Assembly: GCA_963715865.1 (NCBI GenBank)
Contig: OY970280.1
Coordinates: forward strand, 384,001 to 448,000
DNA length: 64,000 nucleotides
Source of the DNA: Candidatus Bathyarchaeota archaeon
GTDB taxonomy: Archaea; Thermoproteota; Bathyarchaeia; Bathyarchaeales; Bathycorpusculaceae
Direction: 5' to 3'
How positions within the stretch are numbered: position 1 is the first letter of the stretch; each line of letters begins with the position of its first letter. Position numbers and translations under genes: made by a program. The notes beneath the pieces were generated by a model. It searched no databases. It was not told the origin of the DNA and saw nothing but the letters and a program-made list of their open reading frames with translations. Positions 1,812 to 4,892 of this stretch are shown here, piece after piece.

Positions 1812-2270
1812 ATGGCTGTTAAAGTTGGCGATAAAGCGCCAGATTTCACACTGCCCTCACAAATGGGCGACAATGTGACACTTTCAGAATTCTTCGGCAA
1901 AAAGAACATAGTCTTATATTTTTATCCGAAAGATGAATCGCCCGGCTGCACACGGGAAGCCTGCAGTTTCAGAGATAGCTATGAAGAATTAACAAATTTG
2001 GGTGCTGAAGTACTCGGTGTAAGTGGTCAAAGCGTGGAATCTCACAAATCGTTCGCTACCCACTATGGTTTACCGTTCATTCTTCTCAGCGATAAGGACA
2101 ATAAGGTTAGGGAACTGTACGGTGTGCCTTCAACCATGGGCATAATTCCAGGACGAGTCACCTACATAATTGACAAACAAGGCATTGTCCGCCACATTTT
2201 CTCTTCCCAAACCCAAGCAGAACGGCACGTGGAAGAAGCAAAAAGAACGCTTGAGGAACTGGAAAAATAG
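1812..2270 (+). CDS. bcp: Peroxiredoxin, BCP/PrxQ subfamily
   Basis: [16 protein letters not shown] motif, with the peroxidatic and resolving Cys in CxxxxC spacing. Confidence 0.93.
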
Positions 2271-2301: not shown

Positions 2302-3537
2302 TTGCTGAATTTATACAATAGCCTTACACGAAAAATTGAGCCGTTCAAACCCGCAGAAGACATGCAGGTTAAAATGTACACTTGTGGTCCCTCAACCTAC
2401 CAGCGAGCGCACATTGGAAACTACCGCACCTTCCTCTTTGAAGACATTCTTCAACGCTACATGGAATACTTAGGCTACAAAGTAAAACGGCTCATCACAC
2501 TAACCGACGTTGAAGACAAAGCCATTGCTCAAGCAAAAAAAGAAAACCTCACCATAGAAGAACTAACAAGAAAAAACGAAGCCGCCTTCTTCCAAGATTT
2601 CAAGCTCCTAAAAATAAAACCGCCAGATTACGCCGTAAGGGCTTCCTCAGCCGTGGACCAAGCTGCAAGATTAATCGCTCAGCTTTTAGAGAAGGGCTAC
2701 GCTTACTGGTACACGTATAGGGGCGAAAAAAACGCTTGTTTCGACCCATTAAAATTTAGTGGTTTTGGAAAACTTGCCCATTTGGACATGAGTAAGTGGC
2801 CGAAAAAGAAGCGCCGCTTTCACAAGGACACTTACCCTGGGACTCCATGGAATCTTGGGGATTTTATTCTTTGGCATGGCTGCAGGCAAGATGATGTTTG
2901 CTATGACACGCAGATTGGCAGTGGCAGGCCAGCGTGGAACATTCAAGACGCAGCCATAGTAACCAAGCATCTGGGCTTCACAATTGACGTTGCCTGCGGT
3001 GGAATCGACAATTTGGTTAGGCATCATGATTATACGCTTGCCATTGCAGAAGCTGTTTCAGGTAAACAGTTCTCGAGGCATTGGCTTCATGGCGGTCACC
3101 TTTTTGTTGATGGCAAAAAGATGTCTAAAAGCATTGGTAACGTGTATTACCCAAGCGACCTTTTAGAGAAAGGTTTTAGTGGCGAGCAGTTGCGGTTCTT
3201 TCTTATCTATGGGCATTACCAGGAAAAACTAAACTTTACCGTCGAAAAGCTGGCTGAAACTAGTCGGAAACTGGATTCTCTCAAAAACATGGTTAAGGAG
3301 TTGCAAGAGTCAAAATCTGATCATTCCAATCCAGAGACAGAGGCGCTGACTAGCAGAATTGCTTCTGAGTTCGAGGGTGGCATGAATAATGATTTAGATG
3401 TTAAATCTGCCTTTGATAGCCTGTATGAAACAATCTGTGAGTTGCACAAGACGTGTGAATCATTAAACGTTAAAGATGTAAAAAATATATTGAATAGTTT
3501 GCGCAGGATTAATTCTGTGCTTCAATGCATTTTCTAG
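2302..3537 (+). CDS. Cysteinyl-tRNA synthetase-like class I ligase with an altered active site and no C-terminal anticodon-binding domain
   Basis: TCGP, HIGN and KMSKS motifs are present, but GRPAWNIQD replaces GRPGWHIEC and HHDYT replaces HHENE; the protein ends at 411 aa after the DALR-like helical domain. Confidence 0.85.
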   Translation: MLNLYNSLTRKIEPFKPAEDMQVKMYTCGPSTYQRAHIGNYRTFLFEDILQRYMEYLGYKVKRLITLTDVEDKAIAQAKKENLTIEELTRKNEAAFFQDFKLLKIKPPDYAVRASSAVDQAARLIAQLLEKGYAYWYTYRGEKNACFDPLKFSGFGKLAHLDMSKWPKKKRRFHKDTYPGTPWNLGDFILWHGCRQDDVCYDTQIGSGRPAWNIQDAAIVTKHLGFTIDVACGGIDNLVRHHDYTLAIAEAVSGKQFSRHWLHGGHLFVDGKKMSKSIGNVYYPSDLLEKGFSGEQLRFFLIYGHYQEKLNFTVEKLAETSRKLDSLKNMVKELQESKSDHSNPETEALTSRIASEFEGGMNNDLDVKSAFDSLYETICELHKTCESLNVKDVKNILNSLRRINSVLQCIF

Positions 3538-3777
3538 TTAGACTAATTCGCCTACCAGCTTAACTCTCTGAAAAGTTTCCTCTCTATGTGGAGCCATCTC
3601 TAATTCTTCAGTTAAGTCTTTTCCTGCTTGGTGCATGCCTAGGTGGTCTCCATCCATCCAGAAACTGCTTTGCGAGACATCGTAAACTTTGCCTTTGTAT
3701 GCTATGTAGGCTGGTTTGCCGTTTTTTCCGTTATTTTCTTCAAGCTCTTGTCGGGTTACCTTTTTTTGTTCAATCAA
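3538..3777 (-). CDS. Cytochrome b5-like heme/steroid-binding domain protein
   Basis: ELEENNG...AYIAYKGKVYDVS...H..MHQAGKDLT...APH pattern typical of small prokaryotic b5 proteins. Confidence 0.88.
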   Translation of the reverse strand: MIEQKKVTRQELEENNGKNGKPAYIAYKGKVYDVSQSSFWMDGDHLGMHQAGKDLTEELEMAPHREETFQRVKLVGELV

Positions 3778-3830: not shown

Positions 3831-4892
3831 CTAGTTTCTTATGCTGGGACCGGATGATGATTGGTAGGCTGCGTTTATGTTGATTCCGCCCACGCTTGTT
3901 TTGAGGGTTATGAGGAAGTTGCTTTCAGCTGGGTAATTGTTCGATTGTATTGGTGACTTGTCTCCTGAAAAGTTGTTGAGATTTGTTGTGATTTGTCCAA
4001 TTTGCGTTTGCGATTCAATCCTTGCTCCAACGCCATTATCAATGTTCATTGCAAGGTTAACTGCGCCTGTTGTGGTGGCCGCGTTAACTTGAACATTTCC
4101 TGAGAGCGCTTTGTTTTCCGTTATGTCAGTGTCAACTGTGCCTGTGGTTGTTTGCAGGTTAAATGTGTCGTTGCCTTGAACGTTTGCTTGGTTCATTCGG
4201 AACGAGACGGCTCCAGTTGTTGTTTTAAGTGATATGTCTCCTGCAATTACTGTGCCGTTTTCTATGTTCGCTTGAATCATGCCTGTGGTGGACTTAAGGT
4301 TTAACGACTCAAAAGTTGCCGGTTCAGCGGCGGTTAAGCTGATTTGTCCAGTTTCCGTGGTGATATTGAGGTTTAGGCGTACTGAAGGGCTGATGTAAAT
4401 GGTGCAGGTTACCCTTAGCGCTCTTGAGAAAAGTCCATGATTAGCGTAAGTGACTTTTGATGTGACCGTTAACGTGTTGCCAGCGGTTTCGTTGCTGAAG
4501 GTTACTTGGATTGGGTTGGTTGAATCAAAAACGCCTATTGAGCCTGTTGCAGAAGTGCCGATTAGGATGGTTCTGCCCGTTAAGTTTTGGGCTATAACGT
4601 TCACTTCTGCCACGTCAGCTTGAAAATTCAAGTTTAATGTGTTGATGTTTGGTTGGTTTACTTGGTTTGTTTGGTTAAAATTCACGGAGTGAAGCGGCGC
4701 AAAAATTATGGCGCTTACAATTACTGCCGTAACTACTATAGCGATTAGGATGATTGCTGTTACTATTAATGGGTCTTTTCTTATTGGTCTTGCTGGAGGT
4801 GCAGGGGTAAAAGTGGCTACTGGTGTTCCGCACTTATAGCAGAACCGAGCGTCTTCTTCCAGTTTAGTTCCGCATCTTCGGCAGTAAGGCAA
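3831..4892 (-). CDS. Zinc-ribbon + TM + DUF4097-like beta-strand repeat protein
   Basis: N-terminal CxxC..CxxC, one TM helix, then repeated (S/T)TTG.I/V beta motifs. Confidence 0.72.
   Translation of the reverse strand: MPYCRRCGTKLEEDARFCYKCGTPVATFTPAPPARPIRKDPLIVTAIILIAIVVTAVIVSAIIFAPLHSVNFNQTNQVNQPNINTLNLNFQADVAEVNVIAQNLTGRTILIGTSATGSIGVFDSTNPIQVTFSNETAGNTLTVTSKVTYANHGLFSRALRVTCTIYISPSVRLNLNITTETGQISLTAAEPATFESLNLKSTTGMIQANIENGTVIAGDISLKTTTGAVSFRMNQANVQGNDTFNLQTTTGTVDTDITENKALSGNVQVNAATTTGAVNLAMNIDNGVGARIESQTQIGQITTNLNNFSGDKSPIQSNNYPAESNFLITLKTSVGGININAAYQSSSGPSIRN

Follow-up and report, generated by a model that had tools for sequence, protein, structure and literature searches.

A CysRS paralog of Bathyarchaeia with a rebuilt amino-acid pocket and no anticodon-binding domain

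What does an archaeon with a normal cysteinyl-tRNA synthetase (CysRS) do with a second, shorter copy whose amino-acid pocket has been rebuilt? The question is raised by a gene in a 64,000-nucleotide stretch of contig OY970280.1 (positions 384,001 to 448,000, assembly GCA_963715865.1) from a Candidatus Bathyarchaeota archaeon, a stretch we refer to as the window. The gene encodes P0001, a member of a clade recognised by the motifs WN[IV]QD and RHHDY. An earlier note, made from the letters of the window alone, described it as a CysRS paralog without the anticodon-binding domain and proposed an amino-acid adenylating ligase with a different substrate and probably a small-molecule acceptor. We agree with the description and are less sure of the proposal. 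P0001 belongs to the CysRS superfamily, yet departs from the true enzymes in profile score, in two zinc ligands, in the anticodon domain and in not having the housekeeping role. We favour, tentatively and with rather less than an even chance of being right in every part, a stress-time auxiliary charging or RNA-modifying enzyme that activates a thiol and uses an RNA acceptor. Coordinates are collected in Table 1.

P0001 is not the housekeeping CysRS, because its genome (2.35 Mb, a single contig) also encodes a canonical cysS and an ordinary tRNA-Cys. The canonical gene lies at genome positions 1602177-1603562, scores 505 bits, and encodes 474 residues with the motifs GRPGWHIEC and FPHHENE and with the C-terminal domain present; P0001 is about 38% identical to it. 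The tRNA, found by ARAGORN, is a tRNA-Cys(GCA) with G1:C72 and U73. A search of the genome found no SepRS, the best match being PheRS-like at 49 bits. Canonical cysS is also present in all four of the checked relatives that carry the paralog. The earlier note had named two outcomes that would tell against it, that this gene was the only route to Cys-tRNA and that its substitutions were common in CysRS. Neither is the case: the canonical cysS provides a route, and among 109 full-length CysRS representatives Asp at position 209 occurs in two and the whole set of substitutions in none. ARAGORN also called a second tRNA-Cys(GCA) of 87 nt outside the window (C1:2154193-2154279), which we rejected as a false positive with weak stems and no Rfam tRNA match, lying inside an open reading frame (ORF). 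It has a long A-rich variable region, and such a false call could mislead automated tRNA counts.

The profile matches place P0001 in the CysRS family and below the line drawn for CysRS itself. Pfam PF01406, the CysRS catalytic domain, matches residues 15-320 with 259.5 bits. TIGR00435, the NCBIfam cysS model, gives 319.7 bits over model positions 1-401 of 466, under its curated whole-protein cut-off of 340. Six clade members score 270-320 bits on this model, P0001 and five others at 270-316, so all are under the cut-off, whereas short forms outside the clade that also lack the anticodon domain but have intact ligands score 354-393 bits and pass. The model for MshC, TIGR03447, has a cut-off of 485 bits; it gives 184.8 on P0001 and 164-189 on other clade members. 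The ORF opens with TTG, and relatives start MLNLYN at the same position. By a HMMER alignment to PDB 1li5, from which we also take all E. coli residue numbers, P0001 runs out near residue 391-394 of the 461 in the E. coli enzyme and thus lacks the anticodon-binding domain, as the earlier note had it. No Pfam DALR_2 match was found in P0001, though the structure model shows a helical bundle in that region. Nor does the genome encode a stand-alone anticodon-binding domain that might be supplied in trans. Databases label clade members as class I tRNA ligase family protein (NCBI) or cysteinyl-tRNA synthetase (JGI).

The 1li5 alignment bears out the motif changes that had been read from the sequence: the Rossmann core, HIGN and KMSKS are intact, GRPGWHIEC has become GRPAWNIQD, and FPHHENE has become VRHHDYT. 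HIGN instead of HIGH is nothing unusual, for the canonical cysS of this genome has it too. The HIGH-type and KMSKS elements of the class I core are invariant in the clade, and the ATP/adenylate machinery as a whole (HIGN, KMSKS and a TDxxDK segment) is intact and under purifying selection. To this extent the earlier picture of an intact adenylation core beside a rebuilt pocket holds, and the rebuilding is fixed across the clade. The zinc ligands of CysRS, which we take to be Cys28, Cys209, His234 and Glu238, are kept at Cys28 and His234 and replaced by Asp at 209 and by Thr at 238. Relative to canonical CysS, seven pocket positions differ: H206N, E208Q and C209D in one half, and P233R, E236D, N237Y and E238 to Thr or Asn in the other. 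Trp205 is kept as Trp212, and His234/His235 as His241/His242. W212, N213, Q215 and D216 are invariant throughout the clade, as are Cys28 and His241; where CysRS has its fourth ligand, E238, the clade is variable, with Thr, Asn or Val.

The zinc ion of E. coli CysRS binds the substrate thiolate, to which Trp205 hydrogen-bonds. Three protein ligands are enough for the zinc site of MshC, and protein farnesyltransferase binds its substrate thiolate at an Asp/Cys/His zinc site. Because Cys28, Asp216, His241 and Trp212 are invariant, the simplest reading of the clade alongside these enzymes is that it probably retains a metal site with three ligands at which a thiolate can bind. The triad would hold the metal with one position open, and the metal would carry one oxidisable thiolate ligand instead of two. 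From the invariant triad and the kept tryptophan, cysteine or a close thiol analogue seems the most likely substrate to be activated to the aminoacyl-adenylate, and we give it slightly better than an even chance; a non-thiol substrate keeps a sizeable chance that falls short of even. The earlier proposal of a different substrate is thus possible but does not follow from the substitutions. Seven positions, spread over the two halves of the pocket, changed as a group and have been fixed since, which indicates some alteration in substrate, metal or acceptor geometry. A cysteine persulfide synthase of the CARS2 type was considered and judged unlikely: the KIIK lysines are required for that activity, and P0001 has Ala in place of the second.

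To delimit the clade itself, 1.8 billion representatives were searched exhaustively with HMMER and the motifs of the matches were tabulated. Its members are proteins of about 400-425 residues that read CGPS ... GRP[AS]WN[IV]QD ... RHHDY[TN] ... KMSKS and have no C-terminal tail. Because the substitutions are invariant across members down to about 45% identity, we conclude from the alignments that they are not due to chance. In a tree of 139 sequences the clade forms a single group with support 100, on a long stem, and lies outside all 109 full-length CysRS representatives. Nearest to it are further short forms that also lack the anticodon domain but have the canonical ligands and pass the cysS cut-off. 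At least 545 loci came to light when species-representative genomes were scanned for the pattern; of the best 80, nearly all are metagenome-assembled genomes of Bathyarchaeia from soil and peat, with Hodarchaeota and Promethearchaeota (Asgard) also represented. One member, at 45% identity, sits on a clearly bacterial contig with genes for PBP, ExbBD, RecO and GrpE alongside. Among proteins of at least 721 residues there are no fused "Rosetta-stone" forms of the clade, the longer matches being canonical CysRS-cysteine synthase fusions at no more than 38% identity. The ESM Atlas holds similar unnamed clusters only, and literature searches found no published description of the clade.

The gene is maintained by selection and yet dispensable. 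Against ten syntenic relatives the dN/dS of the paralog (the ratio of nonsynonymous to synonymous substitution rates) is 0.05-0.20, which is purifying selection, though about twice as relaxed as in its neighbours (0.04-0.13 for the peroxiredoxin, 0.06-0.09 for MetRS). In a sample of 272 high-quality genomes from 111 genera of the class, the paralog occurs in 65 genomes and 11 genera. The genus of the window (g1) has it in 38 of 55 genomes, and it was not found in several whole families of the sample (0/23, 0/34 and 0/23 genomes). Two sister genomes record its loss. In G190 (L110) the locus reads MetRS, Zn-ribbon protein, cytochrome b5, a 208-bp gap and the peroxiredoxin, and the paralog has vanished without trace. 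In G300 the Zn-ribbon and cytochrome b5 genes are intact, and next to them lies what is left of the paralog, a decayed copy (L109:1729-2430, minus strand) that covers residues 212-411 at 33% identity with in-frame stops; there is no orthologous peroxiredoxin. The paralog is an accessory gene that has been lost more than once. Copies in L065, L086 and L095 and in genomes G439 and G396 have a match length that is not a multiple of three, a TGA codon or a truncation; these are either real pseudogenes or errors of long-read assembly.

An AlphaFold2 model of P0001 built from an alignment of 81 sequences is confident overall (predicted local distance difference test, pLDDT, 93.9; predicted template modelling score, pTM, 0.93). 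It contains the Rossmann core, CP1, the stem-contact fold and the helical bundle at residues 314-407, and over these parts it shares the fold of canonical CysS. Foldseek searches with the model give template modelling (TM) scores of 0.90 to CysRS 8qhp, 0.85 to the CysRS-tRNA complex 1u0b, and 0.83-0.84 to MshC structures (3c8z and 8hfn, with PDB entry 8hfm also named). Since these values are so close, the predicted fold does not separate a tRNA enzyme from an MshC-like ligase. The least confident stretch, residues 160-200, contains the CP1 segment specific to the clade. Where canonical enzymes have a KAGAR-type element, the clade has a Lys/Arg run of the form P-K-K-K-R-R-F-H-K-D-x-Y-P-G, kept in archaeal and bacterial members alike, with P167, D176, Y178, G180 and N184 invariant. 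The equivalent MSGA element of CP1 reads base pair 1:72 of tRNA-Cys and is altered in CysRS* (Mukai et al. 2017, PMC5389517). The isoelectric point (pI) of clade members is 8.5-9.8, with one member at 7.3, against 4.9-6.4 for full-length CysRS. A broader statement, that all forms without the anticodon domain are basic, proved false: the short forms of family f18 have pI 5.4-6.8.

Three known offshoots of synthetases invite comparison. MshC, the Cys:GlcN-Ins ligase of mycothiol synthesis, is like P0001 derived from CysRS, about 410 residues long and without an anticodon domain, and the TM scores support the architectural likeness that the earlier note had pointed out. The likeness has a limited meaning, namely that a truncated CysRS can be independent of tRNA. 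MshC differs in profile score and in host range, being found in Actinomycetota where the clade is found in archaea and anaerobic bacteria. MshC keeps Cys/Cys/His zinc ligands and P0001 has Cys/Asp/His. The genome gives only generic GT4 matches for MshA (no more than 144 bits against a cut-off of 462), no match for MshB, and at most 31 bits for MshD against a cut-off of 163. By score and by pathway partners P0001 is not MshC. GluQRS (YadB) is a truncated GluRS paralog that glutamylates the queuosine of tRNA-Asp, an RNA site other than A76. Like P0001 it is a paralog of a class I synthetase, accessory and lacking an anticodon domain, but the analogy is functional only, for the parent family is GluRS and no modified-nucleoside target is suggested for P0001. 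CysRS* of the Desulfobacterales lacks the anticodon domain, has changed CP1 residues, is encoded beside selC* and selB*, and charges a tRNA-Cys(UCA) of its own (Mukai et al. 2017, PMC5389517). By this published description P0001 is alike in being a second cysS copy without the anticodon domain and with an altered CP1. It differs in that its pocket is rebuilt and that no selC*-type tRNA is linked to it (selB* was not searched for).

The neighbouring genes point towards stress. The gene 31 bp upstream is a peroxiredoxin, as the earlier note had it and as its PF00578 match confirms, and the two are probably co-transcribed because the spacer leaves no room for a promoter. Of 86 loci, 69 have a peroxiredoxin directly before the paralog on its strand, at a spacing of 14-80 nt. 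A cytochrome b5-like gene converges on the paralog from downstream in 75 of the 86 and is retained where the paralog is lost. In the sub-clade at 61% identity and above, the whole block is equally syntenic: UDG, methyltransferase, hydrolase, peroxiredoxin, paralog, cytochrome b5, Zn-ribbon protein and MetRS. Members at 52-62% identity lack the neighbours of the peroxiredoxin/cytochrome b5 block. In L010-L012, which represent one Bathyarchaeia lineage and two families, the paralog is followed on the same strand by a Y-family DNA polymerase (DinB/Dpo4-type), and DinB lies within 2.5 kb of it in five further loci. The only immediate same-strand partners are therefore a peroxide-stress gene and a DNA-damage-tolerance gene. 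No partner is common to all the divergent members; RidA, YgaP-like, IF1, nitroreductase, DUF3795 and LonB genes are seen beside them. A glycosyltransferase, deacetylase or acetyltransferase that travels with the paralog was not found in any lineage examined.

We believe these observations are best accommodated, for now, by an active but dispensable CysRS offshoot working beside the normal CysRS of the genome. The adenylate would be passed to an acceptor recognised without reading an anticodon, a tRNA acceptor arm or another RNA being favoured, in stress-time auxiliary charging or RNA modification comparable to CysRS* or GluQRS. An RNA acceptor is modestly favoured, if still short of even probability, because the Lys/Arg run of CP1 is conserved and neither MshA, MshB, MshD nor any other biosynthetic partner was found. 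A small-molecule acceptor strikes us as rather unlikely; what probability remains is split among transfer to a protein, a reaction that ends at the adenylate, and a role without catalysis. There is much to set against the proposal. Seven near-invariant CysRS positions that changed together would be hard to explain if cysteine and A76 of tRNA were both still substrates, and MshC, with the same domain layout, offers the analogy of an enzyme independent of tRNA. Neither the surroundings of the paralog nor the genome yielded a dedicated or unusual tRNA, the only tRNA in the window being a tRNA-Lys 30 kb away. Basic pI is a weak argument for an RNA acceptor, for the f18 short forms are acidic and 36% of the long ORFs of this genome have a pI of at least 8.5. 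The link to peroxide stress is also open to doubt: G190 keeps the peroxiredoxin without the paralog, divergent paralogs lack the peroxiredoxin, and because MetRS, UDG, methyltransferase and hydrolase are as syntenic as the peroxiredoxin, synteny alone proves little about a partnership and may be that of the lineage. If specificity has instead shifted to a non-thiol amino acid, whatever the acceptor, the seven coordinated changes would fit. They are invariant in the clade, and the other state is near-invariant in CysRS, MshC-like and other short forms. Arg240, Asp216, Asp243, Tyr244, Asn213 and Gln215 would then line a new pocket of polar character, which might or might not hold a metal and would accept the side chain of, for example, Ser/Thr, 2,3-diaminopropionate, or a cysteine derivative that is oxidised or acidic. 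The loss of the Glu238 ligand at a now variable position fits such a shift, as does a cysS score under the cut-off where ligand-intact short forms pass. We consider it possible, though less than probable: an invariant Cys28, His241 and ligand-competent Asp216 with a kept Trp212 look like a retained thiolate-binding metal site, Asp209 is seen as well in two lineages of full-length CysRS that are canonical in other respects (P0184 and P0271), and the evidence names no candidate substrate.

The small-molecule acceptor of the earlier note amounts to a tRNA-independent ligase of the MshC type, in which an amine or hydroxyl of a small metabolite attacks the adenylate, be it that of cysteine or of some other amino acid. 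The product might be a novel low-molecular-weight thiol or a redox buffer that works with the probably co-transcribed peroxiredoxin. The shared architecture and length, the absence of an anticodon domain in cis and in trans, and the lack of a dedicated tRNA suit this idea. So do the operon-like pairing with a thiol peroxidase, both members of which are lost in G300, and an accessory distribution of the kind expected of a metabolic add-on. It gains no positive evidence from the partners a biosynthetic pathway should leave behind, whether mycothiol genes, a conserved biosynthetic neighbour or fusions, and its pairing with the peroxiredoxin is broken on both sides as described above. The clade is also far below the MshC cut-off. 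A conserved Lys/Arg run on the acceptor side would be odd for a neutral sugar acceptor, and this run, together with the example of a short CysRS that serves a tRNA (PMC5389517), adds to our doubt about a small-molecule acceptor. We regard a ligase of this type as fairly unlikely. A role that is non-catalytic or stops at the adenylate, as a regulatory pseudo-synthetase binding RNA or protein or as a maker of dinucleotide polyphosphate alarmones in a stress regulon, would agree with a dispensable gene linked to stress genes, and synthetase paralogs with regulatory roles are known. We think it very improbable, for pseudo-enzymes usually lose the HIGN, KMSKS, TDxxDK and pocket residues that are invariant here over deep divergence.

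Only a few offshoots of the aminoacyl-tRNA synthetases have known functions (MshC, GluQRS, PoxA and CysRS*), and each of these revealed new chemistry or translation biology. The present clade is large and ancient, reaching from Bathyarchaeia to Asgard archaea and bacteria, and is under purifying selection. That it is a hitherto unrecognised synthetase-like enzyme of class I, with a pair of substrates peculiar to it and so a new CysRS-derived activity to stand beside MshC and CysRS*, is a reading that we hold to be doubtful. Such an enzyme could place a thiol or a non-standard amino acid onto RNA, in stress recoding or in a modification like that of GluQRS, or could make a protective metabolite in anaerobes. 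The database labels, cysteinyl-tRNA synthetase and class I tRNA ligase family protein, mislead reconstructions of metabolism and translation in these uncultured anaerobes, and the fixed Cys/Asp/His pocket and the basic CP1 element offer clear and cheap biochemical handles. What is new here is the phylogenetic placement, the losses in sister genomes, the DinB linkage, the basic CP1 element and the argument from the retained triad, as well as the negative results for an anticodon domain in trans, fusions, a dedicated tRNA and the mycothiol pathway.

Table 1. Positions of P0001, its motifs and its neighbours (window coordinates unless a locus is named)
Feature	Position	Strand	Basis or remark
CysRS-derived paralog P0001, 411 residues, WN[IV]QD / RHHDY clade member	2302..3537	+	PF01406, TIGR00435, AlphaFold2 model
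Cys28 codon, zinc ligand (CGPS), kept and clade-invariant	2383..2385	+	1li5 alignment
HIGN, class I HIGH motif, residues 37-40	2410..2421	+	canonical cysS of same genome also HIGN
Clade-specific CP1 segment WPKKKRRFHKDTYPGTPWN, residues 166-184; Lys/Arg run in place of KAGAR-type element	2797..2853	+	alignment; pLDDT 73-83
GRPAWNIQD, residues 208-216; Trp212 kept; H206 to Asn213, E208 to Gln215, C209 to Asp216	2923..2949	+	alignment
VRHHDYT, residues 239-245; P233 to Arg240, E236 to Asp243, N237 to Tyr244, E238 to Thr245; His241/His242 kept	3016..3036	+	alignment
KMSKS loop, residues 273-277	3118..3132	+	K273, M274, S275 and K276 clade-invariant
C-terminal helical bundle, residues 314-407; protein ends without alpha/beta anticodon-binding domain	3241..3522	+	model helices; 1li5 alignment to residue 391; no DALR_2 match
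Bcp/PrxQ-type peroxiredoxin, PGCTREAC two-Cys motif, ends 31 bp upstream of paralog	1812..2270	+	PF00578, 137 bits
Cytochrome b5-like protein, 79 residues, convergent with paralog; syntenic context only	3538..3777	-	PF00173 on orthologs
Zn-ribbon and LiaG-like membrane protein; syntenic context only	3831..4892	-	profile matches, locus comparison
Y-family DNA polymerase after CysRS-like gene	L010:2752-3849; L011:2743-3831; L012:399-1505	minus in L012	starts 4-31 nt past stop codon

Some observations stand beside the main argument. A cytochrome b5 is an unexpected protein for an anaerobic archaeon. In most Bathyarchaeia loci its gene and that of the Zn-ribbon/LiaG-like protein converge on the paralog, and both persist after the paralog is lost. 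It is also unusual for a synthetase-like gene to be translationally coupled to a translesion polymerase, as in L010-L012.

Short CysRS forms elsewhere deserve attention in their own right. Five genomes of family f18 (G032, G104, G008, G016 and G040; L116-L120) have a single CysRS of about 390-430 residues without the anticodon domain, acidic, with the motif YPHHECE, and these pass the cysS cut-off with 382-426 bits. A short form as the sole CysRS would suggest that the anticodon domain is unnecessary, but the argument fails, because the two f18 genomes checked, G008 and G016, also encode a full SepRS (599 bits). Remodelling of the pocket in the CysRS family is more varied than the clade of P0001 alone would suggest. 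Short variants read AEPAWNVQC/FNHHENT in P0157 and WHIQD/FPHHSAQ in P0268, a trio (P0200, P0247 and P0256) has GRPG(T/N/S)xxYC, and of the two canonical full-length enzymes with Asp209, P0184 and P0271, the former has a compensating-looking FPHHECE.

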